64,000 nt of DNA. It comes from a virus. Location: UHGV virus genome UHGV-0038492. One strand, 5' to 3'. Below the pieces are notes generated by a model that had not been told where the DNA came from, did no database searches, and worked only from the letters and a program-made list of their open reading frames with translations. The position numbers were made by a program, and so were the translations under genes. Positions 9,020-50,139 of this stretch are shown here, one piece after another; positions within the stretch are counted from its first letter, which is position 1, and the number at the start of each line of letters is the position of its first letter.

Positions 9020-9025
9020 AACCAA

Positions 9026-9063
9026 CCTCTACCTTCGGGTAGAGGTTTTCTTCTTTTTATTTT
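9026..9063 (+). terminator. intrinsic terminator
   Basis: hairpin cctctacc-ttcg-ggtagagg plus T-run. Confidence 0.65.
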
Positions 9064-9107: not shown

Positions 9108-9761
9108 ATGGAACCACTACGTTTAATGACCAGAACGCTACTGATTCCTATCTGGGAATTGAAGCTTGCCCCATTGTCTGCCTCTAATGGGGAGGTCATT
9201 GATTTTATTAAAGACGAAGAATTTGTGTTGACGGCTTTCCAGGAGACGCTGCATCGTTATTATAATGCAGTGCCTTTATCTGGCGGATTAGATTGCCCTG
9301 GTGTAGAAGGGAGTACGTCTGCGTTAATCGCAGAGTATTTAGAACAGAAAGGAATCGGGGTTGGGAAAGGCCGGGTTTATGTGGACGCCGATAAACTGAG
9401 GAGTTACCAGATTGAGCTGACGTTTCAGATAAGAAAATTACTTACCCGCTACGGTCTTTTCTCGATTAACTGTAAGGTTGATGACGTACGGATGTTAGAC
9501 CACGGTTTTACCACTGTCCTCAAAACCTGTCGCGGTAAAAGATTCGTACAGTTTGCGTGGTGGGTACCAGTATTGCGTGGTGAGAGAAAAACGGTGGAGG
9601 GGTTGTACGGCTGGGCGCTATGGAGCGAAGTTCCAGTAAATAAACTCGATGCAGTTATTCCAAAGCACCGAAACGTTCCGCTTAGCAGTTTATTTACTTC
9701 CGGCGAGAACACTACGTGGGCTGAATTCGTTAATAACGTTATGTCAATTGGGGAACAATAA
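9108..9761 (+). CDS. hypothetical protein
   Basis: ATG preceded by AAGGAG. Confidence 0.6.
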   Translation: MEPLRLMTRTLLIPIWELKLAPLSASNGEVIDFIKDEEFVLTAFQETLHRYYNAVPLSGGLDCPGVEGSTSALIAEYLEQKGIGVGKGRVYVDADKLRSYQIELTFQIRKLLTRYGLFSINCKVDDVRMLDHGFTTVLKTCRGKRFVQFAWWVPVLRGERKTVEGLYGWALWSEVPVNKLDAVIPKHRNVPLSSLFTSGENTTWAEFVNNVMSIGEQ

Positions 9762-10237
9762 TGCAGCAATTAGATATTACCGAAGACAAAATCTCCGCTA
9801 AATTTCCACAATTACGTGAATACATCAAAGACTTAAATTCGATACGCGAAACACCGGTCCGCATTACCTTAGCGGTAGAAGATGACATTACACACGGTAT
9901 TGCGATTTGGGAACCGGGCAATCTTATCTATTTGGTGGTGGCGGAAGGTTCTCGACGTTTCGGTGTGGGTTCGTTCTTATTGCAGTACGTTCAGTTGAAT
10001 TCCGATCGTCAAATGGTGACGTGTCGTGTCCACCCTTCGAACATTGACGGCCTGTGTTTCTTTTCGAAAAAAGGCTACCAGATTGACCGTTGGTATATCG
10101 CCAGCGACTCTCGTCGGTATTTTCGTATGACGAACGGTAACGTTGTTTCGTCATACGCCCCGCCGGAAGAAGGATATTTGGTGGATTTTATCGAAAACAC
10201 GCCCATCTTTCTCTCTGTTGCGGATAAAATTTATTAA
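9761..10237 (+). CDS. GNAT-family acetyltransferase-like protein (tentative)
   Basis: VVAEGSRRFGVGSFLLQYV resembles the GNAT acetyl-CoA-binding motif A. Confidence 0.4.
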   Translation: MQQLDITEDKISAKFPQLREYIKDLNSIRETPVRITLAVEDDITHGIAIWEPGNLIYLVVAEGSRRFGVGSFLLQYVQLNSDRQMVTCRVHPSNIDGLCFFSKKGYQIDRWYIASDSRRYFRMTNGNVVSSYAPPEEGYLVDFIENTPIFLSVADKIY

Positions 10238-10253
10238 CCGTTGAGAGTCTAAA

Positions 10254-10730
10254 ATGATACGTGTCGAATATGAGACGCGGTGCTTAGAAGACAATCGAGC
10301 AAAAGCATTACGTTGTGTTGAAATCGTCCCCGAGCACGAACTGGATATCCAAGCTGGTAAGGTTCGGGGCGTTCCGGTTAAGATCGTACAACATAGCCAT
10401 TGTTCGCAATATAAAGAGAAAGCTGTCCCAGTAGTACGTTCCAGTAAACGAGAAGACTTTTCAGAACTCCGTAAGTGTTTTCAACGACACTACCGTCGGA
10501 GTAAATGGAAAGTGTTGGTATTAATGTTAGTCGACGATTTCATTAAAGACCTGGTTTGGGAAGAAGTGCTTAAAGAGCGTGGTTTTCAACCCAAACCGTT
10601 CTCGTATCACTGGGAACGTTTCAAAAAGAAATACCACGAGTCATTGCGTTGGTCTCCGAACACCCGGAATATGATGCCACGTTTGGAATCAATGCCTTGG
10701 CTTCGTGTTTATCTCGATGAGGTAAACTGA
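10254..10730 (+). CDS. hypothetical protein
   Basis: 158-codon ORF with SD-like GAGAG upstream. Confidence 0.55.
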   Translation: MIRVEYETRCLEDNRAKALRCVEIVPEHELDIQAGKVRGVPVKIVQHSHCSQYKEKAVPVVRSSKREDFSELRKCFQRHYRRSKWKVLVLMLVDDFIKDLVWEEVLKERGFQPKPFSYHWERFKKKYHESLRWSPNTRNMMPRLESMPWLRVYLDEVN

Positions 10731-11119
10731 TGAAACGTTTTATTACTCCATTTCTAATGTTACTTTCGTTTTCTGTATTAGCTGATTTTAAACCTTACGA
10801 TATCAGTCGTTACGAACCCGCTGTCCCTGGCGATAAACCGGTTGTGTTTAAAGCAGACGACCAACCCGTCACTGCGGTTCAAAACGATGAGTTTGCAGTG
10901 GTGAATTACGGCAAAACGGACTTATGTCCTGCGGGTGGATTTTATCTGGTGAACATCAAACGTCGGACTTACCAGTTTGTTGATCCGGGTAGCTGCTCTG
11001 CAATGGTTAAGGTGACGTTAGAAACCGTACCTTACACGAATAAAAACATTAATATACAACGTTTAACCTTTTATGCGGGTGATGAAATCACAGCACGTTA
11101 TCCGTTATACGGGTATTAG
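10730..11119 (+). CDS. secreted/periplasmic protein with N-terminal signal peptide
   Basis: MKRFITPFLMLLSFSVLA followed by a polar region. Confidence 0.55.
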   Translation: MKRFITPFLMLLSFSVLADFKPYDISRYEPAVPGDKPVVFKADDQPVTAVQNDEFAVVNYGKTDLCPAGGFYLVNIKRRTYQFVDPGSCSAMVKVTLETVPYTNKNINIQRLTFYAGDEITARYPLYGY

Positions 11120-11142
11120 TGATTAGCCCCCACGGAGTTCGT

Positions 11143-11781
11143 ATGTCTTTTGTAATTGATTTCGACGTTGGCCACAGACAGAACTTACTTAATCTCGTTA
11201 GTTATTGTAACAGTGACAGTGTACGGAAAAAGCTTTCGGCTGAAAAGGTAGACGTTACGCTCGTCGGTGCCCCAACACCGGAAGGACGCTATAAGGTAAA
11301 GTTAACGAACCGTAACGACATAAACGATGCGGTACTGATTACCTACACAAAGCTTCAACTGAACGACTTCCTTGAGATTCCTGCCAAGTATCTGGATTGG
11401 TTTGATTTCGAAAACGGTCAACCTAAGAACTACGATACGTGGGCAGCTTCCGCTAAAGTCGCTGTAGAGAAAATGTGCCAAGACCGAGGTATGGTGATAT
11501 CTCGCGCTTGGGACACCGGTTCACAGTGTCACATTGAGTTTGACGAGTCTATCGAACGGTATGTGGTTGTCTACGAGTGCGACTCTTTTATTTATAGTGC
11601 GAGAAACCGATTCATCTTACCTCTACACTTAGGGCAGGTGATCAACGACACGACATTAGACGGTCTTGATTACAATAACGAACTGAACAAGAAACCATTG
11701 GCGGATTTGGACGGTGAGTTAGAAGTGTGGATGGGTCAGGCGTTGGTTGAGACAGTCGTCTTAAGCGGCCTGGAAGTATAA
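11143..11781 (+). CDS. hypothetical protein
   Basis: ATG at 11143 with GGAG upstream; the track start at 11119 is GTG. Confidence 0.55.
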   Translation: MSFVIDFDVGHRQNLLNLVSYCNSDSVRKKLSAEKVDVTLVGAPTPEGRYKVKLTNRNDINDAVLITYTKLQLNDFLEIPAKYLDWFDFENGQPKNYDTWAASAKVAVEKMCQDRGMVISRAWDTGSQCHIEFDESIERYVVVYECDSFIYSARNRFILPLHLGQVINDTTLDGLDYNNELNKKPLADLDGELEVWMGQALVETVVLSGLEV

Positions 11782-11793
11782 TAGTAACGGCGG

Positions 11794-11834
11794 GTAGAGA
11801 GAGCTTTCGGGCTCTCTCTACTTTTCTTTTTTTT
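11794..11834 (+). terminator. intrinsic terminator
   Basis: hairpin gtagagagagc-tttc-gggctctctctac plus T-run. Confidence 0.65.
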
Positions 11835-11864
11835 CCATTATCGACGGTCTTTATGGAGGTGACC

Positions 11865-12419
11865 ATGAAAGACTATAGAATTGCAATCATCGGGTCTCGA
11901 GAAACACCGGAAGACGTTATGCAGGAAATGTTAGACACGTTACGGGAAGGGTTTCGAATCTTACGAAAGAAAGGCTACACGATTACCACCCGTTCTGGCG
12001 GGTGTTATAAAGGCCCAGACCAGCTTCAGTTTATGATAGCACGTACCGAGGACGTTAAGAGCGTTTGTTATCTGCCGGATGAAAAGAAAATGTGGTTAGG
12101 GAAAATACACCCTAAGGTAGAGTTTCGTTATATCCCACAAGACGTTCAGTACCGAGCGATAGTTGCTTCACTTCACCCAAATCCAGATAAGCTCTCACCG
12201 ATTGCCTGGGCGCTACACGGCCGTAATCTGAATATCATCGCAGGTGACTGCTTAGACGAACCGGTAGACGCAGTCTATTACTTTAGCGACCACGACAAAC
12301 ACGGAAACGCAAAAGGTGGTACTGCGATGGGTGTAAAATACGCGAAGTCAATCGACGTTCCTTGTTACTACCATACCGTCGATCGGGATAAGTGGTTGGA
12401 AAGTCTTCGTTTATTATGA
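11865..12419 (+). CDS. SLOG/DprA-like Rossmann-fold protein (tentative)
   Basis: IAIIGSRE and TTRSGGCYKGPD resemble DprA/Smf-LOG family motifs; ATG at 11865 preceded by GGAGGTG. Confidence 0.35.
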   Translation: MKDYRIAIIGSRETPEDVMQEMLDTLREGFRILRKKGYTITTRSGGCYKGPDQLQFMIARTEDVKSVCYLPDEKKMWLGKIHPKVEFRYIPQDVQYRAIVASLHPNPDKLSPIAWALHGRNLNIIAGDCLDEPVDAVYYFSDHDKHGNAKGGTAMGVKYAKSIDVPCYYHTVDRDKWLESLRLL

Positions 12420-12542
12420 ACTTGACTTTAACCGCGTAGTTGAGTTCAGCGATTCACCGTGCGATGGGAACAGAAGTTACTGTGTATCCGTTAGCAGGGT
12501 GAACTGGGTAAAAGTAAGATCAAAGCAAACGAGTAAATTATC

Positions 12543-13676
12543 ATGTCAACGTTAGATAGCGACTTAGAAGTGCTTTGTGACGATTACGACCGACTCGTAG
12601 CGTTAGAATCCATTGGAGTAAAAGACAATTATCCGGCTATCGTTGCTATCCGTAAACGTTGGCTTTTGGATGATGTGGTTGTTGCGTCAGAGTCTGCGGC
12701 CATGATGCACCGTGCACAGTTTTTGTCAGACACGGAACCTGATAAAGGGATAGGCAAAGCGGCGGCACGACTCACCGGACGTGCGGTTCGTGGCGTAAGT
12801 CGGGTAGCAGGACGTGCTGCCAGTGCAGGTGCAAAAGCATCGGCGAACTTCGCAGGTAAACATTCCAAACAACTTGCTTTACGTTTTGTGGATTTTGCTG
12901 AGGCTGCGGGTAAAGAAGTCATTAAGGAATTAAAAGAAGCGACGTCTAAAGCGACGACCTTAGAGCGCAAACTGCAAAAGTTAAATGCACGTCTAAATTT
13001 AATCGGTGACAAAGACACCTTAAAACCGGTTGACTGCGACACGGGAAGCTGGACGACCAAAGTTTGTTTAGAAGACAAACCTAACGTAAAAGCGTGTATT
13101 GAGTTCAGTAAGAACCTGAACGCAATGGATGCGATGGTCAACGAGTATACCGTTAAAACGCGCACCATTATCGGTAAGAGCAAGAAAGTTACTGAGAGTG
13201 GCTTGGAGAAAGTAGGTCGCTCAACGAACTGGGCGATTAAACGTAGTGCAGGGCTGTTCGGTATTATCGATCCGTTTAAAACGGTGAAAGCGTATCCGTG
13301 GCCAGGTAACGTGGTGGTCGTTGAACACGACAACGGTAAGATTGAGTGGGCGATTGCCCGTGATGGTGATTTTGGCCACTCAATCAAATCTCTGAACTTA
13401 CACGAAATCGGTTCGGCTCTCGAAGCCGTTGAAAAAATTATCCGAGCTTTACGTCAGCGTGGTACGAAGCGACGTAGCGTTGGTTATACCGGTATTTACG
13501 ATGAAGTTCAGCGAATGAAAAAAGAGCTGAAGTCGTTAGACGGTCGTGAGTTACGCGATGCTACCGTTCGGTATAAGAACGCACTGCGTTTAGAAGATGC
13601 GTTTACTACCTCGTTAGTGCGTGTTGCGGAAGGCTTACTGGAATGGTGCAGGTTGTCGCTGATTGAGGTTAAATAA
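12543..13676 (+). CDS. hypothetical protein (377 aa)
   Basis: long ORF in an operon-like run. Confidence 0.6.
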   Translation: MSTLDSDLEVLCDDYDRLVALESIGVKDNYPAIVAIRKRWLLDDVVVASESAAMMHRAQFLSDTEPDKGIGKAAARLTGRAVRGVSRVAGRAASAGAKASANFAGKHSKQLALRFVDFAEAAGKEVIKELKEATSKATTLERKLQKLNARLNLIGDKDTLKPVDCDTGSWTTKVCLEDKPNVKACIEFSKNLNAMDAMVNEYTVKTRTIIGKSKKVTESGLEKVGRSTNWAIKRSAGLFGIIDPFKTVKAYPWPGNVVVVEHDNGKIEWAIARDGDFGHSIKSLNLHEIGSALEAVEKIIRALRQRGTKRRSVGYTGIYDEVQRMKKELKSLDGRELRDATVRYKNALRLEDAFTTSLVRVAEGLLEWCRLSLIEVK

Positions 13677-14143
13677 TGCGTATTACTATTATTCTCAAAC
13701 CCGACAGTAAATACGGAAAGTTATACGGCGACCAGGTACTCAAACTGCACAACATGTTGTTCGCAGAAGAGAAAGTGCGTATTAGTCAGTTAACTGGACG
13801 TGACACGTTCAACCCCATCGAACGTTTAGAAGAGATTTGGCCTCAAGACTATCTCTGTGCGTGTGCGGTGGGTGACAACGAACAGCTTCTGGGATTTATG
13901 ACGTTCTCATTGGGTTCTTGCTCAAAAGACACGTTTGTTTACATCGGGAATTACTATGTGATTCCTGAAGCACGTTCTCAAGGGGTAGGGCGTGCGCTTA
14001 TGGACAAAGTCCGTGAATACGGAAAGTCCAAAGGTTGTGGTTGGATGAGTCTGGATGTGTTAGACAACAACGTTAAAGCTATCTCCTTGTATGAGAAAAT
14101 GGGATTCCGTACCGAATGCAGGGAAATGATAAAGGAAATCTAA
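13676..14143 (+). CDS. GNAT-family N-acetyltransferase
   Basis: ARSQGVGRALMDKVREYGKSKGC...SLYEKMGF matches GNAT motifs A and B. Confidence 0.6.
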   Translation: MRITIILKPDSKYGKLYGDQVLKLHNMLFAEEKVRISQLTGRDTFNPIERLEEIWPQDYLCACAVGDNEQLLGFMTFSLGSCSKDTFVYIGNYYVIPEARSQGVGRALMDKVREYGKSKGCGWMSLDVLDNNVKAISLYEKMGFRTECREMIKEI

Positions 14144-14144
14144 A

Positions 14145-14777
14145 ATGGCTGCAAGATTCGTACCGTTTCATGACGGGTCTAGATATACTTTTGGTGTAGA
14201 GCGTTACGCTGTGGGTTTTCGTCCTGGTTGGAGAGTGGTACGAATCGATAAAGCGTGTTGGTGTTTACCGACCGGCATTTTTGATTACTTTACGCCTGAA
14301 GCTTTAACGCGGTTTGTTTCTCTGGGTTCTCCCACGCAACGTGCTGCGTGGGAAAAGAATATTCGTTGCCGTTATTTGGGTAAAACACGAAACGCGACGG
14401 TACGTGGTGTTTATCACGTAGGGAGTCGTTGGTTACACGTTGAGCCAACACATCCCCGTTGTGCCGTCACACCCTTTAACGGTGAATATCGCGGTCAGGT
14501 GTACACGGGGTTACATTTTGCGTTCCCGGATAACCCTGACCTTAATTATTTTCTGGCTACCCCGAAAGACGTTACATTAGCCACGTTCTATAAATACCTT
14601 TTGTTCTATCCTGCCTACGTCGTTGCAGAATACGAACACAAAGCATTTCCTCTGCCTTACGGTAGAGACAGGAGATTAGCAGGATGTTCTATCGAGAACT
14701 TCAGCAATACACCGACGCTCTCCGAAAAGCGACCATTGATGCTCACAACAACCTCAGAGATGTCGTTAGCGTTATAG
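14145..14777 (+). CDS. hypothetical protein; 3' end overlaps the next ORF by 94 nt
   Basis: 210-codon ORF. Confidence 0.5.
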   Translation: MAARFVPFHDGSRYTFGVERYAVGFRPGWRVVRIDKACWCLPTGIFDYFTPEALTRFVSLGSPTQRAAWEKNIRCRYLGKTRNATVRGVYHVGSRWLHVEPTHPRCAVTPFNGEYRGQVYTGLHFAFPDNPDLNYFLATPKDVTLATFYKYLLFYPAYVVAEYEHKAFPLPYGRDRRLAGCSIENFSNTPTLSEKRPLMLTTTSEMSLAL

Positions 14778-15055
14778 AACAGTGTTCGGATGTATTGTAT
14801 GCGGAAACGATTGAAACGCCAACCCACGACGGTGTGAAATCGCTCCAGCTACACGTTTGTAGTAAACACGGCAGTCTGTCGTTAAACTTCCGTGTAGGTT
14901 TAGATTATTACATGGTTCGTAAGAGCTATTTAAGTTGTGACGGTGACCTTTATCCGGTTGTCTGGAACAACGATTATTCTAAGTTTGTTTATCCACTTGA
15001 AGAACACCGACGCACGGTTTATGAATTTGTGAAAGCTGTTCTCGAGGGGTTCTAA
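14684..15055 (+). CDS. hypothetical protein
   Basis: ATG at 14684 preceded by AGGAG; no later in-frame ATG available. Confidence 0.5.
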   Translation: MFYRELQQYTDALRKATIDAHNNLRDVVSVIEQCSDVLYAETIETPTHDGVKSLQLHVCSKHGSLSLNFRVGLDYYMVRKSYLSCDGDLYPVVWNNDYSKFVYPLEEHRRTVYEFVKAVLEGF

Positions 15056-15068
15056 AGAGGGTATTGTG

Positions 15069-15674
15069 ATGTCAGAGATGATTCTCGACTCATTACTGCT
15101 GATTACGGTGGCGTATATCAACAAAACCGGTAAGCTACCAAAGCGTGGGGTGACGATTGAACGGGAGGGGTTTAAGCACCGCTACCCGTTAACGAAAGTT
15201 CTCGATTTGGCAGCGCGGTTAGCGAAGATGCGTAGACCGACGTCAGACGCAGCACCGAAGTACGTCTTAGTGGTACTCCAACGTGCGATTTCTGAAGTCC
15301 GTCGTGCGCGTCGTCGTGCCTCGTTTCGCTTTTATCCAAACTCTACGCAGCAGGTTGTGGGGGTCTATAACGAAATGGTTGTTGATTTACGTACCGAACA
15401 CTGTAACGTTACAGGACTTGCGTATAACCGCCTCAAACGCATTCTGGACGACTCAGACGCGTTTACCACACCGCAAGAAGGTCAAGCGGCTTTAGCGCTT
15501 CTACGAGGCGCTGAGCTCGTTATTGTGGACACCGCAGTACAGGCCGCAAGAATGCAGCACTATCTTGCTAAGCAAGGATTAGTTTTACTGTGTGTTCCGT
15601 CTGCACAGGCTGCTAATCTTACCGCACCGGAAACGTCAGAAGTGTGGAGTGGTCCGATTGTTGACCATCAATAA
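15069..15674 (+). CDS. hypothetical protein
   Basis: ATG at 15069; the track start is the adjacent GTG at 15066. Confidence 0.55.
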   Translation: MSEMILDSLLLITVAYINKTGKLPKRGVTIEREGFKHRYPLTKVLDLAARLAKMRRPTSDAAPKYVLVVLQRAISEVRRARRRASFRFYPNSTQQVVGVYNEMVVDLRTEHCNVTGLAYNRLKRILDDSDAFTTPQEGQAALALLRGAELVIVDTAVQAARMQHYLAKQGLVLLCVPSAQAANLTAPETSEVWSGPIVDHQ

Positions 15675-15681
15675 AACCTTA

Positions 15682-15716
15682 CCCCTACCTATCGGTAGGG
15701 GCGGGTTTCTTTTTTT
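15682..15716 (+). terminator. intrinsic terminator
   Basis: hairpin cccctacc-tatc-ggtagggg plus T-run. Confidence 0.65.
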
Positions 15717-15813
15717 ATCCTAAAATTTATTACAACCAATAGCTATTATGTGAACGCCGGTATGGAATAAAGAAGTATCGGTTTAAATTTTTGTGCGTAA
15801 AGGTAAAACGATA

Positions 15814-16437
15814 ATGCTTAAGACAGTGTCTATTGATGGCCCTGACTTTTCTGGGAAATCGACGTTGTGCAAAATAGTAAAAGGTATGCTGGAATCTGCG
15901 GGGTTAAAGGTCTGCATCCGTAATCACCCTACGACGGAGACCGAAGCGGGTATCCGCGCACGCAGTTTAGTCGTTCAGTCCGCAGCAAAAGCAAAAATTG
16001 CCGAAGCGATGTGCGACGATTTCCTTCACACGTTAGACCATGTTGTTGACGATTACGATGTTGTTATTTTCGACAGGTTCTGTCCCTCTACAATCGTTTA
16101 CCAGGGTGTCGACGGTAAAGACGAAGTTTTCCGACGTAAGCTAACGCGTCATTTCCACGCACCAGATTTGTACGTTTGGACGGACGTGGATTACGACGGC
16201 GCAGTAGCACGCTTTAAGAAACGGGTAGAAGAACAAGGTAAGAATTGGGACGACGAGGTTCTTACCGTTAAGTATTTAAAAGACAACCAAAGTTGGGAAG
16301 CGTTACGTGACCACTACCGCTTTGCCCACCACATCCTCACTGAAGGCGGTTGTCTGCACCATTTATTACCCGTGAAGCAAGACGACGATTACCGTTTGAA
16401 AGCGGCTGAAATCGTTGCTTGTATTTTAGAGAATTAA
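15814..16437 (+). CDS. thymidylate kinase-like dNMP kinase
   Basis: P-loop GPDFSGKST near the N-terminus and a DRF...YQG motif typical of TMP kinases; ATG at 15814 puts the P-loop at residues 9-16. Confidence 0.6.
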   Translation: MLKTVSIDGPDFSGKSTLCKIVKGMLESAGLKVCIRNHPTTETEAGIRARSLVVQSAAKAKIAEAMCDDFLHTLDHVVDDYDVVIFDRFCPSTIVYQGVDGKDEVFRRKLTRHFHAPDLYVWTDVDYDGAVARFKKRVEEQGKNWDDEVLTVKYLKDNQSWEALRDHYRFAHHILTEGGCLHHLLPVKQDDDYRLKAAEIVACILEN

Positions 16438-16444
16438 TCACATA

Positions 16445-16479
16445 CCCCTACCTTCGGGTAGGGGATTATTTAATTTTTT
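16445..16479 (+). terminator. intrinsic terminator
   Basis: hairpin cccctacc-ttcg-ggtagggg plus T-rich tail. Confidence 0.65.
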
Positions 16480-16520
16480 CTCAGATATATATTACCTTAG
16501 TGAGATTACACAGTAATCTC
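16480..16520 (+). promoter_or_regulatory. conserved promoter-like motif TCAGATATATATTACCTTAG followed by a 5' hairpin
   Basis: the same ~19-nt motif recurs at 38019 and 42447, with a variant at 21778; AT-rich upstream, TATATT -10-like core. Confidence 0.45.
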
Positions 16521-16555
16521 TTTACGACTTGTTCTACAGATTAGGATTAAATATC

Positions 16556-16915
16556 ATGGCTTACAATCACAACTCTATTGTTTTAGCAAAACGTAAATTC
16601 GGTCTTCATCTTTCTTACGTGATTCGTCATTTGACAGCGAAAGACATTACACAGCGTGAACTTGCCCAGCTTGCGAAAGTTTCACAGCCGGTTATTTCAT
16701 CTATTAAGAACGATCATAGCGAACGCCTGAGTCTACCAATAATGATGAAGGTTGCTGATGCAATTCGTCTGAAATATCAGATTACGTTTAATTCTGTTAA
16801 AGGGCGTTGCTCAGTAACGGTTCACGTAGAGTCTGCGTTGGACTACGTTGCAAATACGTCCCTTAAACGTACAGCGAAAAATATTCGTTTTGTTACTAAC
16901 AGCGCAACACACTAA
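16556..16915 (+). CDS. helix-turn-helix DNA-binding protein (putative transcriptional regulator)
   Basis: ITQRELAQLAKVSQPVISSIKN resembles an XRE/Cro-type HTH; ATG at 16556. Confidence 0.45.
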   Translation: MAYNHNSIVLAKRKFGLHLSYVIRHLTAKDITQRELAQLAKVSQPVISSIKNDHSERLSLPIMMKVADAIRLKYQITFNSVKGRCSVTVHVESALDYVANTSLKRTAKNIRFVTNSATH

Positions 16916-16936
16916 TCAACCTAAAGGAGTATTATC

Positions 16937-17620
16937 ATGGCACCGAAAACTAAGAAAACTGAAGTTAAAGAAACTGTAGAAAAGCCGACTGATACTAAGG
17001 AAGCGGAAGTTAAGCAGACTGGGCCTAGCAAGAAGCTTGCGCTTATGCCACCCACCACAGAAATACACGGGGATAAAATCTTAAGTTACACTCCGCGCGC
17101 GAGTTTAACGATGGATATTTACCATTACCCGGTATTCGACCTGTACACGCTTGTCTGTCGACTCGACGATGAGATACTGGCAGTCGTTCCAGGTATCCAC
17201 AAAGAAAAACTGCTTACGGGTTCAGTCATTAGCGAGATTTTCCTGCGCTTGATGTTTAAATCAGACGATAAGATGATCAGCCAGATTGCTAGTAAATTGA
17301 CTGACTTCTTTGTTGAGGCTTCAACGTGGTTAGGCTTTCACCCAACGGCTTATTTCATTTTCGACACCAAAATGTTGTATGCTGAAATGGGCGATAGCGT
17401 TAAGTATCCTATCTTGCTTAATGAAGAAGTCGTTCCGTTTTCCCTTACCAGTCCTAACAAACATCTTCGCTTTCATCCTGCGTTAGAAAACCTGATTGAA
17501 TACAATCGGTTGGAAAAATATTACGCTTATCATCGCATGTTCTTTGAACTTCTGCGTGATAAATTAAGAGGCAAAGTTCCAGATTCTAGTGCAGCATTCA
17601 CTAGTTCTAAGCTTTGGTAG
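16937..17620 (+). CDS. hypothetical protein with Lys-rich N-terminus
   Basis: AAAGGAG upstream of ATG. Confidence 0.6.
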   Translation: MAPKTKKTEVKETVEKPTDTKEAEVKQTGPSKKLALMPPTTEIHGDKILSYTPRASLTMDIYHYPVFDLYTLVCRLDDEILAVVPGIHKEKLLTGSVISEIFLRLMFKSDDKMISQIASKLTDFFVEASTWLGFHPTAYFIFDTKMLYAEMGDSVKYPILLNEEVVPFSLTSPNKHLRFHPALENLIEYNRLEKYYAYHRMFFELLRDKLRGKVPDSSAAFTSSKLW

Positions 17621-17632
17621 TTTGTAACAAAC

Positions 17633-17660
17633 AGGGAGCTTCGGCTCCCTTTTTCTTTTT
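17633..17660 (+). terminator. intrinsic terminator
   Basis: hairpin agggagc-ttcg-gctccct plus T-run. Confidence 0.65.
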
Positions 17661-17706
17661 ACAACTTTTTCTTTTGTTGTGAGGAAAGCCGATAAGGAGT
17701 ATTAAA

Positions 17707-18693
17707 ATGGTATATCGTAAAACGATAGAAAGAACCTCTTCTGATTTAACCGTAGGACGCTTAACCCGTAGAGATATTCGCAATCCTCAGCTTCAGGCAT
17801 GTTTAACGGGGCCTAACGGTGCGGTGATTCGAGAAGCACTGTGTAATACCGAGCTGAATACGTTCTCTTTACAAAAAGGAAAAACAATCCAAGGGTTTAT
17901 CATCACAAAACACATTTACGGCGACCCAACGTTACACTGCTTGTATATGCACGAAATTGTACCTGGGTGTTTGAACAAACTGAGCCTTCTATTGGTACTT
18001 GACTATACGGGTTTTACGTACCTTAACCGAATTGCCAGAGGTGTGGAAGAAATCGCCGAGCTTAACGATTTAGGGTTTAGACATACCCACACAGCATATC
18101 GTTTAGGTACACGTAAGTTACTGGATGTCACTTTACCGACGAACGTGAAGAACGTCTCCGACGACTTCTATAAAGACTTAACCGGAGCACAACGTGAACA
18201 GCTTATGATGTTGCTTGGCACTAGCGTCGTTGAAAACATCAATGCTGACCCTGTAACGCGTTCTCGACAAATAATGCCACAAGTTGAAACATTGGTGGAA
18301 TTAGTGCGGCACGTCAATCACTACACTTACGTTTGGATGGACGGTAATGACGTTGTGGGTGTGGTGCAAGTTAAATCACGCAATCTTAGCGAGTGCGAAC
18401 TAAAAGCCATTGCGGTAAGTGAAACACACCGGGGCCGTGGGATTGGGCGTGCGTTGTTGTACCGTGCTTTACAGATTGCATCGACAACAGCGGCACCATT
18501 AGAAATAGGGTGTTACAATAACAACCCAGCATTTAGACACCTGGCCGTAGATTTGTTTAAATTCCGTCCCTACGAGTACGAATTTGTTTTAGTGCGCGAC
18601 GACGATGTCGTCAGTTGGGAGCGTCGGAAAAACCGCGTCGAGTTAGTGTTAGGCGACGAAATGTCATCGTTACAAGGCGGAATTAATGCATAA
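17707..18693 (+). CDS. protein with C-terminal GNAT acetyltransferase domain
   Basis: ELKAIAVSETHRGRGIGRALLYRALQIA matches GNAT motif A; ATAAGGAG upstream of ATG. Confidence 0.5.
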   Translation: MVYRKTIERTSSDLTVGRLTRRDIRNPQLQACLTGPNGAVIREALCNTELNTFSLQKGKTIQGFIITKHIYGDPTLHCLYMHEIVPGCLNKLSLLLVLDYTGFTYLNRIARGVEEIAELNDLGFRHTHTAYRLGTRKLLDVTLPTNVKNVSDDFYKDLTGAQREQLMMLLGTSVVENINADPVTRSRQIMPQVETLVELVRHVNHYTYVWMDGNDVVGVVQVKSRNLSECELKAIAVSETHRGRGIGRALLYRALQIASTTAAPLEIGCYNNNPAFRHLAVDLFKFRPYEYEFVLVRDDDVVSWERRKNRVELVLGDEMSSLQGGINA

Positions 18694-19501
18694 ACCAATT
18701 ATAAAGTGGATGGGTGGCAAATCGCGGATTATCGACACCTTACTACAAGTCTTACCTGAACGTACCACTTTCGTTGAACCGTTTGTTGGCGCAGGGTCAG
18801 TGTTTTTGAACACACGTTATAAACGTTACATTCTTGCTGACTCTAACCCTGACTTAATCCAGTTGCTGAATGTAGCGAAAGACCAACCTGAAGAACTTAT
18901 CTTGAAGTCGAAACCGCTATTCGAAGACGGTAACGATTGTATTAAGTATATGGAGAGACGAGAACTGTTTAATCGCGAAACGGATATGGCTCCGTTAGAC
19001 CGGGCAGCAATGTTTCTGTACTTAATGCGTCACGGTTTTAACGGGATGTGTCGTTACAACGGCAGCGGGGGTTTTAACGTTCCGTTTGGTCGCTATCCTA
19101 ACGGTGTGTATTACCCGTTAGAAGAGATTCGTGGTTGGGCTAAACGTTGTCAAGAACCGGAATACTTAGAAATTGTTTGTGAAGATTTCCGAACAGTTTT
19201 AGAGCGTACGCCGGAAGACAGTGTGATTTACGCAGACCCACCGTATATACCGCTCTCAGAGACCGCTAAACACGCGCAATACCATCGGAAGGAGTTTTCC
19301 CAGGCCGACCATCGGGAACTCGCCAGAGCGCTGTTTAAGCAGGTTGAGAAGGGGAATAGCGTTGTGTTGTCCAATGCGGATACGTTACTAACGCGTGAGA
19401 TTTATTACGGGTTCGAATGGCGTTCTGTGGAAGTTGGCCGATACATGGGTGCGTCAGGTGCTGCTCGTAAAACGGTAACGGAATTGTTAGGAGTGCTCTA
19501 A
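18686..19501 (+). CDS. dam: DNA N6-adenine methyltransferase (Dam-like)
   Basis: IIKWMGGKSR, FVEPFVGAGSVF (motif I) and ADPPY (motif IV). Confidence 0.8.
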   Translation: MHKPIIKWMGGKSRIIDTLLQVLPERTTFVEPFVGAGSVFLNTRYKRYILADSNPDLIQLLNVAKDQPEELILKSKPLFEDGNDCIKYMERRELFNRETDMAPLDRAAMFLYLMRHGFNGMCRYNGSGGFNVPFGRYPNGVYYPLEEIRGWAKRCQEPEYLEIVCEDFRTVLERTPEDSVIYADPPYIPLSETAKHAQYHRKEFSQADHRELARALFKQVEKGNSVVLSNADTLLTREIYYGFEWRSVEVGRYMGASGAARKTVTELLGVL

Positions 19502-20274
19502 TGCGTATAGTGGATATCCACGATTATCGTAATGACCATTTAGCGATTGGTGTAGAAGGTAAGATGGTTTCGTTAACCCGTGTACGCAAAGGGTTAATGG
19601 AAAAGGAGATCATTCGGGAGTCCGAAGACCCTACCTTTATCATCCTTTCGAACACTAATCAGTTACAGGGCATCTTTTCAGGGCGTGCTGACGGTAAGAT
19701 TTTCTATATGTCCGCAATCGTTGTGTTTGCGAAGAAGAACATCAACTTTGCCCAACTCAAACGTTTGTTAAACGTGAAGATGTTTGATGTCACCTACCCT
19801 GCTAATGACCTAAAACGTCGTGATCAGTTAATGGCGTTTTTGGGTATGCAGCCAACGTCAATCGATTATGACCTTACGATTACTGAAAAGCCGGAAGTAC
19901 GTACTGACTTACCTGACGTGGTCGACGTTGAATCCCTAACGTTAGAAGAGACGTTTACGATTCCTAAGGTTGTTAATGTCAACCTGGACACGCACTGTTT
20001 AGGGTTGTTAGCCGTAGGTGCAGCAGAAGGGTTGTGTTGTCGTAAAGACGGTAAGGTTGAAGGAATCTTAGTCTATTCGAAAATCAACGAAAAGACGTTT
20101 GCCACCGAAGGCTTTTTCTATAACGACTGTACTTACGGAAACGCACTACTAACCACGTATTTCCGTATTGCTTATCTGAAAGGCGCAACTGTACGCCTCA
20201 CGTTTCCATACACAGCTCCACCGTCTATGGGTGGAGTTGAGGTAGAACCATTAACCGGCCACTTTATCTTTTAA
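19501..20274 (+). CDS. hypothetical protein
   Basis: 257-codon ORF with overlapping stop/start. Confidence 0.6.
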   Translation: MRIVDIHDYRNDHLAIGVEGKMVSLTRVRKGLMEKEIIRESEDPTFIILSNTNQLQGIFSGRADGKIFYMSAIVVFAKKNINFAQLKRLLNVKMFDVTYPANDLKRRDQLMAFLGMQPTSIDYDLTITEKPEVRTDLPDVVDVESLTLEETFTIPKVVNVNLDTHCLGLLAVGAAEGLCCRKDGKVEGILVYSKINEKTFATEGFFYNDCTYGNALLTTYFRIAYLKGATVRLTFPYTAPPSMGGVEVEPLTGHFIF

Positions 20275-21061: not shown

Positions 21062-21099
21062 CCCCTCTCTCCGTTTGGAGAGAGGGTGTATTTATTTTT
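21062..21099 (+). terminator. intrinsic terminator
   Basis: hairpin cccctctctcc-gttt-ggagagaggg plus T-run; near-identical stem to 22109. Confidence 0.65.
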
Positions 21100-23607: not shown

Positions 23608-24068
23608 ATTGCTTCGAATCTAAAGAAATTGTTGAGTTGTTTAAGCAACGTGAGAAAACAACATTCCGTGACCTGTACGATTCCGATTACCGTCCTCTGT
23701 TTGCGGTATTGTTGAAACTGGATAAAGAACCCGAAATCGCACTAGCAGAAGTTCAGCATCATCACATCAGTTTCGTGTTAACTGAAAACAAGGAACGTTG
23801 GGTAGATGACATACTGGGTCGTATTGCGCTTTTGGAAACGCCGCATCGCTGGGAAGTGGTTATTCAGAAATCGTTGTTCCCGCGTGAAGACATTTTCAAC
23901 AATTATCGTCCGAAACAGTATTACAACCACGACGGGTCACCAAAACGTGCTTTTCTGGCACCCCAGCATTTCGTAACCTACGTAACGTTGCGTTACAAAG
24001 ACACCGTGGTACCGTTTGACACCTACCTGGAAATGCGTGAGATAATTTTAGGGAAGAATCCAACATGA
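23604..24068 (+). CDS. hypothetical protein
   Basis: ATGA overlap at 23604. Confidence 0.55.
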   Translation: MNCFESKEIVELFKQREKTTFRDLYDSDYRPLFAVLLKLDKEPEIALAEVQHHHISFVLTENKERWVDDILGRIALLETPHRWEVVIQKSLFPREDIFNNYRPKQYYNHDGSPKRAFLAPQHFVTYVTLRYKDTVVPFDTYLEMREIILGKNPT

Positions 24069-24547
24069 TTCAATTTTCTGTTGACGCAGAAAGACTGGCG
24101 TCGTTTAAAGAACGTGCTCAGTCTGCAACTAAAAACGGCTATATCGAGAAAGGTGTTCGTGATACCTGTAAACTAATTAACGACCATCCGCACCTGGCGA
24201 CAATGTGGAGCTGTGAAGGTCACGGTATGTATTCTAAGTCACCTGGAAATCTGCATATCGTTTTTGCAACAGACGCTATTGGAAGTCAGATTCCAATGCA
24301 GGTTATGTCCGAACTTGCAAAATCGGATTTACCTAATTTTTGGAATCTTAGTTTGTGTCGTCTTTATATACCAGATTCATACACGGATTTGGTATATCTT
24401 GAACCTGACTATGGGCTAAACACCGACGACACGTCTTACTGGGCTTGGAAAATCGGATACATGTGCTTGATTAATCGGCCAGCATTAATTGAGACACGTC
24501 AAGCTCTTTACAAAGCATTTCACACAGTATTAGTTGAGAATAAATAA
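24065..24547 (+). CDS. hypothetical protein
   Basis: ATGA overlap at 24065. Confidence 0.55.
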   Translation: MIQFSVDAERLASFKERAQSATKNGYIEKGVRDTCKLINDHPHLATMWSCEGHGMYSKSPGNLHIVFATDAIGSQIPMQVMSELAKSDLPNFWNLSLCRLYIPDSYTDLVYLEPDYGLNTDDTSYWAWKIGYMCLINRPALIETRQALYKAFHTVLVENK

Positions 24548-26664: not shown

Positions 26665-27228
26665 GTGGCCACATCTTACGTACCTGATTTGAGTCTGACC
26701 TCAGCAGAGCTAGTGGTCGCTTTAATCAATCATGATAACGGGTTACAGCTTACACTAAACGAAATCCGTATTAGCGGAACTGTAACAAACCCATCCCCAA
26801 CAACTTCGCGACGTAACACTATCACCGAAATCAGTAAAATCAGAAAACCAGATGGTGCGTCTGTTGTGGTTTACTACGACAGACTTGACGCCGATGAGGT
26901 ATTAACGTCCGAACCTATTTTGATTTCGTTAGACGGTACCGAAGCGAACATTCGTGATGTGCTTAGTGTTGTAAATGAATACTGCGGTACGAATTTACAA
27001 CCTGAGGACTTACGTGCCTCAGATATTACTTCAGGTAATGATCCTATTGCTATTAACGTTGCTGACGATTCTCCTGCCTGGATGAATGCGTTTATGGTGA
27101 CGTTGTTTGATAAAACCGAACGTGCGTTAGCGAACGAAGAAGATGAAATCTTCTGCATCGGTGACGATAGCGTTCTTACATTCGAGGTTACAGATGGCGA
27201 CAGCACTGAAGAAGACGAGACTCCATGA
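26665..27228 (+). CDS. tail-fibre-associated protein, member of a six-gene paralog family (paralog of 36829..37341)
   Basis: GTG start after GGAGGG; N-terminus PDLSLTS...NHD and C-terminal NEYCGTNLQPEDL shared with 36829. Confidence 0.6.
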   Translation: MATSYVPDLSLTSAELVVALINHDNGLQLTLNEIRISGTVTNPSPTTSRRNTITEISKIRKPDGASVVVYYDRLDADEVLTSEPILISLDGTEANIRDVLSVVNEYCGTNLQPEDLRASDITSGNDPIAINVADDSPAWMNAFMVTLFDKTERALANEEDEIFCIGDDSVLTFEVTDGDSTEEDETP

Positions 27229-35349: not shown

Positions 35350-36141
35350 GTGGTTATTTTGTCTGTATCAGCGACTCCCGGATGGATTGGTTCTTCAGCA
35401 AAAGCTGAAGCTGGTAATGGTTGGATGTCTGGCGCGATGCACACACTCGGTGTGCCAGTTCCAGGCTGGATGTCGCAATTGGCGGGAAAATCAAAAGAGG
35501 CTCAGTATTCGATCGGGGCTAATCACAATTACAATAAAGATACGCTTATTAACTATTTACGTTCCATAGGCTCTACTGCTGTCGTTGTGACCATTACAGG
35601 GGATTTAGTGTCTTATAGTAGCGGGGTTCCTTGTTTAGAGTTCCCTAGCAATCTTCCAAATTCGTATATTACCCTCATCATCAATCCTGGGGTTACAGTA
35701 TACGGCAGAGGAGGCAACGGCGGTTCTAACTCACCAGGCGGTGCAGGTGGAACCGCAATACAGAACGGAATAGGAAACAGACTGCGTATAACCAACCGTG
35801 GCGCTATTGCCGGAGGCGGTGGCGGCGGTGGCGGCGGTAACAGGGGTAGACTAATATTTGGTGGTGGCGGTGGTCGCCCATTCGGTGCTGGTGGGTCTTC
35901 CTCTCATATGAGTTCCGGTGCGGCTGCTGGTACTATTTCCGCTCCTGGTAGAGGATCTGTTGGTGAGGGGTCTCTTAGTGCATATACAGGCGGTTCGGGT
36001 GGTAATGTCGGTGCTGGTGGAGGAAGATGTAATACTCATGGTAACGGTACAGAATATAACGGCGGAGCAGCTGGTGCAGCTGTTACTGGTAATGCGCCAA
36101 GATGGGACGCAGTAGGTGCAATATACGGTTCACGTGTTTAA
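35350..36141 (+). CDS. gp38-like tail-fibre tip adhesin with polyglycine motifs
   Basis: N-terminal PGWIGSSAKAEAGNGWMSGA and polyglycine blocks GGGGGGGGGN, GGGGGRPFGAGG; start uncertain (GTG 35350 or TTG 35359). Confidence 0.55.
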   Translation: MVILSVSATPGWIGSSAKAEAGNGWMSGAMHTLGVPVPGWMSQLAGKSKEAQYSIGANHNYNKDTLINYLRSIGSTAVVVTITGDLVSYSSGVPCLEFPSNLPNSYITLIINPGVTVYGRGGNGGSNSPGGAGGTAIQNGIGNRLRITNRGAIAGGGGGGGGGNRGRLIFGGGGGRPFGAGGSSSHMSSGAAAGTISAPGRGSVGEGSLSAYTGGSGGNVGAGGGRCNTHGNGTEYNGGAAGAAVTGNAPRWDAVGAIYGSRV

Positions 36142-36157: not shown

Positions 36158-36670
36158 ATGGGGGTAGCGTCAGGATGGGTCGGATCTTCAGCTAAGAATG
36201 AAACTGGCCAACAATGGATGAGCGCTGCGGGTAGTAAATTAGGATTGGGTAGACCTTTTATGATGAGCCAAATGGTAGGCAAGTCCGTAGGTTGCAAAAT
36301 AGCAACAGCTTATTATAAAACGTCAAATACTGATAAAGTAGAGAACTGGGGTGCTGTCGGAGCCGATTGGCCGTTGGTAGATAAGAACAAAGGAACGCTT
36401 TCTGGTGCCTCGAACTGTGGCTTAGGACGTTTAGTGGGGATCGTACTTACGCAAGCTCACTACATTTCTGGTGTTCCACCCACTGCGGCTTTATACATCG
36501 CAGGAGGAAGGGCAAGTAATATTACAGTAACAGTTGGTGGTGTTTCGCAAGCATTTACTTACGATAGTGTTATTAACGGTTTTCACTATTATTGGCAAGG
36601 AACGCCTAGTTCGGCCTTTATAGCGGCAATGAAGAAGACGGGTGTTACACAAGATTTGAAAGTTAGCTAA
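36158..36670 (+). CDS. gp38-like N-terminal domain protein (adhesin/chaperone paralog lacking polyglycine blocks)
   Basis: N-terminus GWVGSSAKNETGQQWMSAA parallels 35350; AAGGAGGG upstream of ATG. Confidence 0.5.
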   Translation: MGVASGWVGSSAKNETGQQWMSAAGSKLGLGRPFMMSQMVGKSVGCKIATAYYKTSNTDKVENWGAVGADWPLVDKNKGTLSGASNCGLGRLVGIVLTQAHYISGVPPTAALYIAGGRASNITVTVGGVSQAFTYDSVINGFHYYWQGTPSSAFIAAMKKTGVTQDLKVS

Positions 36671-36828: not shown

Positions 36829-37341
36829 GTGGAACAATTCACGCCAGATTTGTCGTTAACTTCACTTAACATGGTTATTTCACTGGTTAACCATGACCTC
36901 CAGCTTGACTTGCAAGAGAACGAGGTTGAAGTCAGCGACGTAAAGACCAGTAACGAAATGGATCGTGACACCACTGCTGTTGTAAAGATAAAACGTCCCG
37001 GTAACAGAACGTTACAAATCTATTACAACCGTTTAACCGCAGAACGTTGGTTAAACCAGCAACCTATTCTGGTGCAAGTAACTGGAGAGGGGTTTAACAC
37101 ACACGATTTAATCGATGCGATTAACGCAGCCTGTGGTAGTAACCTGCAACCCGAAGATCTTCAGGACGATTCATTTACAGTAGGAAAAGACGCTGTAACG
37201 TTACAGGTATCACCTAACTCCCTAAGTTATAAAGGCCAATTCTCTGTTTTGGTTTTTGGTAACGGCGAAGAGGCCGCAGTAACAAAAGATGACAACCTAA
37301 TCGTTACCGCAGATAATCGCGTCTTAACCTTTGGAGGTTAA
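36829..37341 (+). CDS. tail-fibre-associated protein, paralog of 26665..27228
   Basis: GTG start after AGGAGGT; shared PDLSLTS and NAACGSNLQPEDL motifs. Confidence 0.6.
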   Translation: MEQFTPDLSLTSLNMVISLVNHDLQLDLQENEVEVSDVKTSNEMDRDTTAVVKIKRPGNRTLQIYYNRLTAERWLNQQPILVQVTGEGFNTHDLIDAINAACGSNLQPEDLQDDSFTVGKDAVTLQVSPNSLSYKGQFSVLVFGNGEEAAVTKDDNLIVTADNRVLTFGG

Positions 37342-38018: not shown

Positions 38019-38060
38019 TCAGATATATATTACCTAGAGGAGAGCGAAATTTACATTCGC
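38019..38060 (+). promoter_or_regulatory. promoter-like motif TCAGATATATATTACCTAG plus hairpin
   Basis: exact copy of the motif at 16480 and 42447. Confidence 0.45.
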
Positions 38061-42446: not shown

Positions 42447-42496
42447 TCAGATATATATTACCTAGGTGAGAGTTCAGCTACTCTCACTTAACTAAA
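42447..42496 (+). promoter_or_regulatory. promoter-like motif TCAGATATATATTACCTAG plus hairpin plus TTAACTAAA
   Basis: exact motif copy; hairpin gtgagagt-tcagct-actctcac. Confidence 0.45.
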
Positions 42497-50000: not shown

Positions 50001-50139
50001 AATCTCATCCTTATTAAAATTAAGAAAAATTAATTTTTTCAGGTTAGCGCTTACTGCCAACCGTCATATCTATATTTTAGGAAATGTCTAAAATAACATT
50101 CTTATGCAATCCACCCCTGCCACTTACGAGGTAAAAACG

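Follow-up and report, generated by a model that had tools for sequence, protein, structure and literature searches.

Background

The closest described relatives of the DNA analysed here are the SPN3US-like jumbo phages, which include Salmonella phage SPN3US (Seoulvirus) and the Erwinia phages Asesino and phiEaH2 (Erskinevirus) and Caitlin, Huxley and Machina (Machinavirus). SPN3US and Asesino belong to the nucleus-forming Chimalliviridae (PMC13282480), and PMC9365700 describes a chimallin homologue in SPN3US and a phage nucleus from which host defence factors are kept out. The sequence in Protein Data Bank (PDB) entry 7DQG is that of SPN3US gp88, an acetyltransferase. Li et al. 2023 expressed candidate phage spermidine N-acetyltransferases in Escherichia coli without speG; N-acetylspermidine was made by the proteins of phiEaH2 (YP_007237670) and Caitlin (YP_009292176) and not by that of SPN3US (YP_009153389) (PMC9992855). 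Here we analyse the equivalent genes in a stretch of 64,000 nucleotides (nt) of the virus genome UHGV-0038492, hereafter the window, which encodes three GNAT-type acetyltransferases (GNAT1, GNAT2 and GNAT3), a Dam-family DNA methyltransferase and a thymidylate (dTMP) kinase.

A first-pass annotation had read these five genes together, proposing that several acetyltransferases in an early/middle region modify host proteins or small molecules in host takeover or anti-defence, and that the Dam enzyme methylates phage DNA against restriction. Profiles, PHROGs and motifs confirm all five genes where they had been placed, on the + strand (Table 1). In our best explanation, to which we give as a whole a probability of about 0.7, the region is a conserved non-structural block equivalent to SPN3US gp87-gp107, and the five genes are functional but independent of one another, not one module. 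The gene set is ordinary and syntenic in the SPN3US-like giant phages: its genes are annotated in every one of them, one has a crystal structure and another has orthologues with published activity. What we add is the placement of GNAT2 against the published assays, the predicted tandem architecture of GNAT3 and of a protein of 257 amino acids (aa), allele replacement at GNAT3 and the 227-aa gene upstream of it, a promoter-like motif and a clade-wide depletion of GATC.

Results

Gene order and relatives

In protein-level searches, the best matches of the genes in the region were all to SPN3US-like jumbo phages. Megablast of the region against 50,697 deposited phage genomes found no close nucleotide relative (approximately 1% query coverage, from a 66-nt match only), and homologues were therefore sought by protein comparison. 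The exact GNAT3 protein is also encoded on a 225,250-bp metagenome scaffold in ENA, the source metagenome being ERZ28615578, which makes the window phage an uncultured member of the SPN3US-like group. By analogy with SPN3US and Asesino, it would also be nucleus-forming.

Both tblastn and the annotated records reveal that gene order and strand are conserved in SPN3US, Asesino, phiEaH2, Caitlin, Huxley and the pEa_SNUABM phages. The shared order is virion proteins, acetyltransferase, DprA-like protein, internal head protein, acetyltransferase, thymidylate kinase, helix-turn-helix (HTH) protein, GNAT protein and DNA methyltransferase. The block of SPN3US gp88, gp95, gp100, gp104 and gp105, which is also found in Erskinevirus and Machinavirus, agrees with the window in order, strand, gene families and stop/start overlaps. 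In contrast, the window proteins are only 21-71% identical to those of this block, and nucleotide similarity is essentially nil. SPN3US further has a second gp107-like paralogue and the small genes gp93, gp99 and gp102, for which the window has no equivalents, and its gp103 has no detectable homologue in the window; the erskineviruses lack GNAT3, which the window has. Identity to SPN3US is 39-82% for most genes of the region, the outliers being GNAT3 (about 29%), the 257-aa gene (24%), the 217-aa gene upstream of GNAT1 (24%) and the 227-aa gene (no match). The region is flanked by virion-structural genes and a RuvC-like resolvase at 1.5-8.4 kb and by tail and tail-fibre genes at 27.6-36.7 kb.

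The local density of GNATs is real, because none of 30 other open reading frames (ORFs) at 22-51 kb has a Pfam GNAT match. It reflects inherited synteny, common to SPN3US, Asesino, phiEaH2 and Caitlin, and is not peculiar to this genome. No further hidden GNAT scored above negative controls, either when the region's unknown ORFs (including those of the 217-, 210- and 227-aa proteins) were compared by hhalign with four GNAT profiles or when family hidden Markov models were run against all ORFs of the window. Among themselves, the three GNATs are remote relatives (best hhalign E values 4e-6 and 4e-7), and the genes lying between them include that of the internal head protein. Within one allele class, GNAT1, GNAT2, GNAT3, Dam and the kinase all have ratios of nonsynonymous to synonymous divergence (dN/dS) of 0.00-0.13, and all five are under purifying selection.

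Table 1. Features of the region, with the identity of the window proteins to those of a close relative (L009, assembled from run ERR12526631)
Feature	Position	Strand	Identity to L009 (%)	Remarks
Terminator-like hairpin and T-run	9024-9047	+		Upstream of the GNAT1 unit
217-aa protein of unknown function	9108-9761	+		Fast-evolving, 24% identity to SPN3US
GNAT1	9761-10237	+		158 aa; single-domain GNAT, orthologue of SPN3US gp88 (PDB 7DQG)
Putative unit 1	to 11781	+		217-aa gene, GNAT1
Terminator-like hairpin and T-run	11792-11823	+		Ends the GNAT1 unit
DprA-like protein	11853-12419	+
Internal head protein (phiKZ_IP family)	12543-13676	+		Orthologue of SPN3US gp94; stop overlaps GNAT2 start (TAATG)
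GNAT2	13676-14143	+		155 aa; canonical GNAT; its orthologues include SPN3US gp95 and the spermidine N-acetyltransferases of phiEaH2 and Caitlin
Putative unit 2	to 15674	+		DprA-like gene, internal head protein gene, GNAT2
Terminator-like hairpin and T-run	15682-15701	+		Ends the unit of the DprA-like protein, head protein and GNAT2
Divergent dTMP kinase	15814-16437	+		Mechanical ORF from GTG 15793; likely start ATG 15814
Putative unit 3				Kinase alone
Terminator-like hairpin and T-run	16445-16464	+		After the kinase gene
AT-rich 19-nt motif TCAGATATATATTACCTTA	16481-16499	+		The region's only early-promoter-like site; upstream of the HTH gene
XRE-type HTH DNA-binding protein	16556-16915	+	95	ORF from TTG 16529; relatives annotated 119 aa
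227-aa protein, variable slot	16937-17620	+	89	Matches no family in any profile library
Putative unit 4				HTH gene, 227-aa gene
Terminator-like hairpin and T-run	17633-17650	+		Between the 227-aa gene and GNAT3
GNAT3	17707-18693	+	46	328 aa; tandem GNAT, allele-replacement island
GNAT3 N-terminal degenerate GNAT fold	17746-18105	+	58	Residues about 14-133; from the model
GNAT3 C-terminal GNAT	18145-18594	+	37	Residues about 147-296; from the model and motif A, R-G-R-G-I-G
Dam-family N6-adenine DNA methyltransferase	18686-19501	+	98	Start overlaps GNAT3 stop by 8 nt (ATGCATAA)
257-aa protein (SPN3US gp106-like)	19501-20274	+	97	Predicted tandem GNAT fold, coenzyme A (CoA) motif missing in both halves
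168-aa protein			98
Putative unit 5				GNAT3, Dam, 257-, 75- and 168-aa genes
Terminator-like hairpin and T-run	21063-21086	+		Ends the GNAT3-Dam-257-aa-75-aa-168-aa unit

GNAT1 and GNAT2

Passing the GNAT profile thresholds had been set beforehand as the test of the acetyltransferase assignments. GNAT2 and the C-terminus of GNAT3 pass those of Pfam; GNAT1 fails, and its NCBIfam matches are far under their cut-offs, but it is rescued by three other comparisons. It matches phrog_7861 ("acetyltransferase") over its full length with an E value of 2e-69. Its family profile finds 7DQG, which is 58% identical to GNAT1, at E 9e-85, with other GNAT structures at 6e-5 or weaker. By hhalign it is related to the GNAT2 family (probability 87%, E 4e-6). 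GNAT1 carries the Q/R-x-x-G-x-G/A CoA motif (motif A) as R-R-F-G-V-G; R65 and G68 are invariant across the family, and the final position holds one of the two residues permitted there, G or A. Judged by this homology and motif, GNAT1 is a genuine GNAT despite the Pfam result. It shares motif A and a conserved C-terminal tail with gp88 and differs from it in that the GNAT1 copy lies under the Pfam threshold. The dN/dS of GNAT1 is 0.06 or lower. GNAT1 would thus be an acetyl-CoA-binding member of a phage-specific family whose SPN3US representative has a crystal structure. That structure was presumably published by Ki et al. 2022 (J Microbiol 60:746). A 2022 SPN3US acetyltransferase paper (pmid 35781628) is cited for SPN3US in PMC12328618, and the literature searched, which did not include the structure paper, yielded no acceptor substrate for the 7DQG protein. 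GNAT1 and the 217-aa gene upstream are apparently translationally coupled, since they share nucleotide 9761 as the end of one stop codon and the beginning of the next start (1-nt overlap).

GNAT2 scores 68.3 bits with PF00583 (cut-off 20.7), and both its motif A, R-S-Q-G-V-G, and the alpha-4 tyrosine, Y139, are invariant in the alignment of its orthologues. It is a syntenic orthologue of an experimentally active enzyme: the gene of YP_007237670 directly follows the internal head protein gene of phiEaH2, and SPN3US gp95 (YP_009153389) has the same position. Over the full length, GNAT2 is 49% identical to the phiEaH2, 45% to the Caitlin and 47% to the SPN3US orthologue; Caitlin and phiEaH2 are 56% identical to each other, in agreement with Table S4 of PMC9992855. 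Among proteins of solved structure, the best relatives of GNAT2 acetylate diamines and polyamines. When six orthologues are aligned, only SPN3US departs from four otherwise invariant positions (I6V, D10N, D110E and D130G), whereas GNAT2 retains D10, D110 and D130 together with all residues invariant in the active enzymes. A polyamine acetyltransferase is, by these comparisons, the most likely identity of GNAT2, with the odds slightly in its favour; such an enzyme would acetylate spermidine or a related polyamine and so reduce the pool of free polycations. Of the small-molecule modification proposed earlier, this much is plausible, two orthologues having acetylated spermidine in E. coli (PMC9992855). 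The TAATG overlap suggests that GNAT2 is translationally coupled to the head protein.

GNAT3 and the 257-aa protein

GNAT3 scores 45.3 bits with PF00583 at residues 198-279 (cut-off 20.7). The AlphaFold model, built on an 11-sequence alignment, contains two GNAT-type beta-alpha units, with a mean predicted local distance difference test score (pLDDT) of 81.8 and a predicted template modelling score (pTM) of 0.74. The top Foldseek matches in PDB are all tandem GNATs, namely CBG 2WPW, VipF 6WQB and 7WX5, MAB_4324, GlmA and MshD 1OZP, at E values of 1e-13 to 5e-9. Profile, motif A and fold agree that the C-terminal domain is a GNAT. Motif A is confined to this domain; the N-terminal domain has no CoA motif and was not recognised as a GNAT from its sequence by hhalign. 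Motif A is kept as R-x-x-G-I-G in the GNAT3 alleles of the window, L009, SPN3US and pEa_SNUABM_29, which are only 28-46% identical overall, and is degraded in Machinavirus, where the first G is R. Characterised tandem GNATs have one catalytic domain only, which is C-terminal in VipF and MshD (PMC10936415). Like MshD (1OZP), VipF (6WQB), CBG (2WPW/2WPX) and GlmA (5KF1), GNAT3 has two GNAT folds per chain, of which only the C-terminal one would be able to catalyse, as in MshD and VipF, and the two domains are expected to form a cleft that selects the acceptor.

The resemblance is one of architecture: identity to these four proteins is 11-16%, with no detectable homology beyond the generic GNAT core, and GNAT3 scores 22 bits with TIGR03448 (MshD), for which the cut-off is 163. 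The substrate of GNAT3 is not inferable from them, because the substrates of tandem GNATs with solved structures range over thiols, sugars, antibiotics and proteins. When 5.8 billion proteins were searched with its profile, the GNAT3 family proved to be limited to SPN3US-like phages, with 11 members and one marginal match. About 740 database sequences fall into the two GNAT3 clusters. The 8-nt overlap of GNAT3 and Dam recurs in close relatives. We also considered a toxin-antitoxin pair of the HTH protein and GNAT3, which we reject given the terminator and the unrelated gene that separate the two; the folds, moreover, match tandem GNATs and not AtaT/TacT.

The 257-aa gene begins at nucleotide 19501, the last of the Dam stop codon. 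It matches nothing in Pfam or NCBIfam and belongs to a PHROG of unknown function. Its model (five-sequence alignment, pLDDT 76.9, pTM 0.59) again contains two GNAT-like units, and in PDB it is best matched by the tandem GNATs already named for GNAT3, with VipF 6WQB first at E 2e-9. By sequence, it does not resemble GNATs significantly (E 0.03), and no conserved CoA motif was found in it. The GNAT3 model also matches uncharacterised proteins of 256-276 aa from phiEaH2 and Kwan in BFVD. Going by the models, the 257-aa protein is probably a non-catalytic GNAT-fold paralogue, which is new here; our confidence in its fold is moderate because the alignment is shallow. Directly behind Dam, SPN3US-like phages have one or two genes of this type: SPN3US has two (gp106 and gp107), the window phage one.

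Dam methyltransferase and GATC avoidance

Dam scores 195.9 bits with PF02086 and 254.7 with TIGR00571 (cut-off 114.85), and is 45% identical to E. coli Dam over the full length. It has the catalytic D184-P-P-Y187 and the S-adenosylmethionine (AdoMet) motif F33-V-G-A-G37. Its closest solved relatives, E. coli Dam (2G1P) and DpnM (2DPM), are both GATC enzymes, and T4 Dam is far off (E 1e-7). Among the residues of E. coli Dam that we take to be its DNA-contact positions (K9, Y119, N120, L122, R124, P134 and Y138), the equivalents of K9, N120, R124, P134 and Y138 are kept, while Y119 is F and L122 is M. The window enzyme therefore resembles E. coli Dam and DpnM in DPPY, AdoMet motif and most contact residues, and differs from E. 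coli Dam at two of these positions and in being an orphan in a GATC-avoiding genome. No nuclease family match was found in the genes adjoining Dam with Pfam or PHROGs, so that it is probably an orphan methyltransferase. It is likely to be specific for GATC on this evidence, and would methylate the adenine of GATC on phage DNA.

The window contains 122 GATC sites where 261 are expected (observed/expected 0.47); second-order Markov simulations gave 262, with a standard deviation of 17. GATC is its second most depleted 4-nt palindrome, after CTAG. The ratio is 0.19-0.37 in the syntenic regions (L001-L008) of SPN3US, Asesino, phiEaH2, Caitlin and Huxley, and all the GATC-depleted phages compared encode a Dam-family methyltransferase. 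This two- to five-fold, clade-wide depletion despite a phage Dam is new here. GATC is avoided throughout the clade and presumably methylated there as well. A plausible, if conjectural, account is that the phage nucleus bars host Dam, so that the phage's own enzyme keeps the remaining sites methylated. Thus the GATC methylase of the first-pass annotation is well supported by the sequence, while its role against restriction is no more than an inference, the target itself being strongly avoided.

Allele replacement around GNAT3

In comparison with L009, identity at the nucleotide level, taken per 100 nt, drops from 93-98% to 41-68% at about 17750-18650 and recovers at both ends of the GNAT3 ORF. 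Synonymous sites in GNAT3 are saturated between the two phages and the neighbouring genes have a synonymous divergence (dS) of 0.2-0.4, which indicates that the allele was imported by recombination and did not arise by fast evolution in place. We reject positive selection acting on GNAT3 in situ on the same observation. L009 GNAT3 is nearer to SPN3US gp104 (36%) than window GNAT3 is (28%). The 227-aa gene varies likewise: in a 225-kb scaffold (L012, ENA ERZ28629423), GNAT3 is 91% identical to that of the window, whereas the 227-aa gene is only 38% identical, with a dS of 2.6, between flanking genes of 90-93%. No homologue of it was detectable at the same position of SPN3US. GNAT3 and the upstream 227-aa gene are thus allele-replacement hot spots among otherwise near-identical phages, which is a new observation, and recombination is the means by which GNAT3 alleles are traded.

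Over the whole 20 kb, synonymous divergence between L012 and the window ranges from 0.15 to saturated between adjacent genes; the 20-kb region, not just GNAT3, is a fine-scale recombination mosaic. L009 also differs from the window by an insertion or deletion of about 400 nt (24051-24450 in the window, missing in L009), which carries a 160-aa ORF (24065-24547) of phrog_7413 with a weak TYW3-like Pfam match.

Transcription units and a promoter-like motif

The predicted terminators are strong GC-rich hairpins, all in intergenic gaps, and divide the region into five putative transcription units (Table 1). Our five genes would be spread over four of these units, and the three GNATs over three. Within units, stop and start codons overlap at 217-aa gene/GNAT1, head protein/GNAT2, GNAT3/Dam and Dam/257-aa gene, a pattern that suggests translational coupling. 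The terminators at 9024-9047, 15682-15701 and 16445-16464 have a common core, CTACC-(T)TCG-GGTAG, and two of them hardly differ (CCCCTACC..GGTAGGGG), as if one terminator cassette had been used repeatedly.

In jumbo phages that encode RNA polymerases of their own, early promoters carry such AT-rich motifs (PMC7598289). The window has three copies of a 19-nt motif of this kind, TCAGATATATATTACCTAG, where 0.01 would be expected; all are intergenic and on the + strand (16481-16499, 38019-38037 and 42447-42465). The first copy lies 57 nt 5' of the probable start of the HTH gene. Two relatives, SPN3US and Asesino, were searched for it, and both have it with one mismatch at the same place (L001 12238-12256; L002 12797-12815) and nowhere else in their syntenic 20 kb. 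By analogy, this phage group probably uses it as the early promoter of the virion RNA polymerase; if so, no early operon begins with any of the five genes. Sigma-70 promoters were not above chance (21 sites against 20.1 expected), which fits phages that use their own RNA polymerases. A second promoter class, "TTTTTAC", noted downstream of terminators, was dropped because it is simply where the terminator T-run ends.

The kinase and neighbouring genes

The kinase scores 64.2 bits with PF02223 (cut-off 27) and has the P-loop GPDFSGKST and a DRF motif; its PDB matches are significant only for thymidylate kinases (E 3.5e-7). The likely start is preceded by an AAAGG ribosome-binding site, and the relatives are annotated with 207 aa. 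With a terminator on either side, the gene is probably monocistronic. It would phosphorylate dTMP for DNA synthesis.

The protein that is annotated as DprA-like in relatives (phrog_768) has only a weak Pfam match, to a SLOG-family domain (YAcAr, E 0.04); it could be a SLOG protein that processes nucleotides and not a mediator of recombination. Further downstream, five DUF7941 paralogues lie amid the tail-fibre genes (26665-27228, 36829-37341, 46131-46979, 46993-47472 and 50104-50676, all +), and two T-even gp38-type adhesin genes (35350-36141 and 36158-36670) follow a 1519-aa tail-fibre gene, which together suggest an enterobacterial host and modular receptor binding.

Discussion

Several points weigh against the reading of the region as a conserved block of independent, functional genes. 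GNAT1 scores only 20 bits with Acetyltransf_7, for which the cut-off is 27; the kinase misses the equivalog TIGR00041 (52.9 against 83.25), and Dam lies under the equivalog cut-off of PRK10904 (256 against 441). SPN3US gp95, the closest tested relative with respect to host, made no acetylspermidine, and GNAT2 is about equidistant from the active (45-49%) and inactive (47%) orthologues. The D10N and D130G changes may explain the SPN3US result, since loss of acidic residues would reduce polyamine binding; this is reasonable, but it is our own deduction from the alignment. The alpha-4 tyrosine position of GNAT3 aligns with Leu279, next to a nearly invariant His278, so that a non-canonical catalysis is plausible. 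The models of GNAT3 and the 257-aa protein were built on shallow alignments (11 and 5 sequences), and Foldseek TM-scores of GNAT3 with the solved tandem GNATs are only 0.4-0.5, low because the domain orientation differs. The terminators, and with them the transcription units, and the early promoter are predictions.

Among the alternatives, that of a coordinated early battery, in which all three GNATs would acetylate host proteins in takeover or anti-defence, as phiKMV-like Rac does with the RNA polymerase alpha subunit, is the one closest to the first-pass annotation. Roles of this sort have been suggested for the GNATs of jumbo phages at large in a comparative review (PMC7824862), the GNAT3 fold resembles the effector VipF, and its allele swapping is of the type expected at a host interface. 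Against this, the GNATs fall into three distant families and three putative units, the early-promoter motif precedes the HTH gene and no GNAT in three genera, the GNAT2 orthologues act on spermidine, and GNAT1 and GNAT2 are conserved at ordinary rates. We consider a battery improbable, and the proposal that the acetyltransferases act together in an early/middle region is not supported; modification of host proteins or anti-defence is possible for GNAT3 only. The main rival for GNAT2 itself is a RimI/Nat-like protein N-acetyltransferase that modifies the coupled internal head protein or other virion proteins. The 1-nt overlap of the two genes is kept in SPN3US and close relatives, the top NCBIfam match is rimI (49 bits), and the SPN3US orthologue lacks spermidine activity; but the rimI score is far under its cut-off of 86.4, two orthologues acetylate spermidine in vivo, and the solved structures closest to GNAT2 are those of diamine and polyamine enzymes. 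A search of the main text of SPN3US papers on the virion, head assembly and mass spectrometry gave no sign that a GNAT is packaged in virions; gp94 is the sole one named there among the five gene products and the head protein. A word search of the head mass-spectrometry paper (PMC10052503) found no occurrence of "acetyl", which is not evidence against acetylation. This alternative is doubtful, and polyamine acetylation is preferred for GNAT2.

For GNAT3 and the 257-aa protein, we weighed whether both are scaffolds with a co-opted, non-catalytic GNAT fold, a condition for which PMC9365700 gives a precedent in the C-terminal domain of chimallin, a GNAT fold without active-site residues. The motif-less 257-aa protein and the degraded motif A of Machinavirus GNAT3 would fit. 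Such a role is quite improbable for the pair, given that four divergent GNAT3 alleles (28-46% identity) hold R-x-x-G-I-G, that the Pfam GNAT score of GNAT3 is over the cut-off and that selection on it is purifying within each allele class. Still less probable, to the point of being hardly tenable, is a two-enzyme module in which Dam methylates adenine and GNAT3 acylates a base in the manner of Mom. The repeated 8-nt overlap and the adjacency of GNAT3 and Dam in both Seoulvirus and Machinavirus speak for it, and Mom and other GNAT-superfamily enzymes modify DNA in some jumbo phages (PMC7824862). However, neither GNAT3 nor GNAT1 or GNAT2 has a Mom-family match in Pfam or PHROGs, Asesino and phiEaH2 retain Dam without GNAT3, the two genes have different histories (46% against 98% identity to L009), and the closest folds of GNAT3 act on proteins, sugars or thiols. 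Independent genes in an inherited block therefore remain our preferred reading. Within it, we raise tentatively, as a rather unlikely extension, that the 227-aa gene and GNAT3 form a host-interface locus. GNAT3 would then be a VipF-like effector whose catalytic, acceptor-binding half is swapped to match or escape a strain-specific target or defence, and the 257-aa protein might be its non-catalytic partner or decoy.

Conclusions

GNAT2 keeps the acidic residues that are changed only in the inactive SPN3US protein, which offers a cheap mutational route to why the SPN3US enzyme failed. A phage that carries its own Dam and yet avoids GATC does not fit a simple account of methylation to escape restriction. 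Finally, the anciently diverged alleles of GNAT3 and the 227-aa gene, set amid flanks that are 89-98% identical, mark a possible site of strain-specific host interaction in a nucleus-forming jumbo phage.

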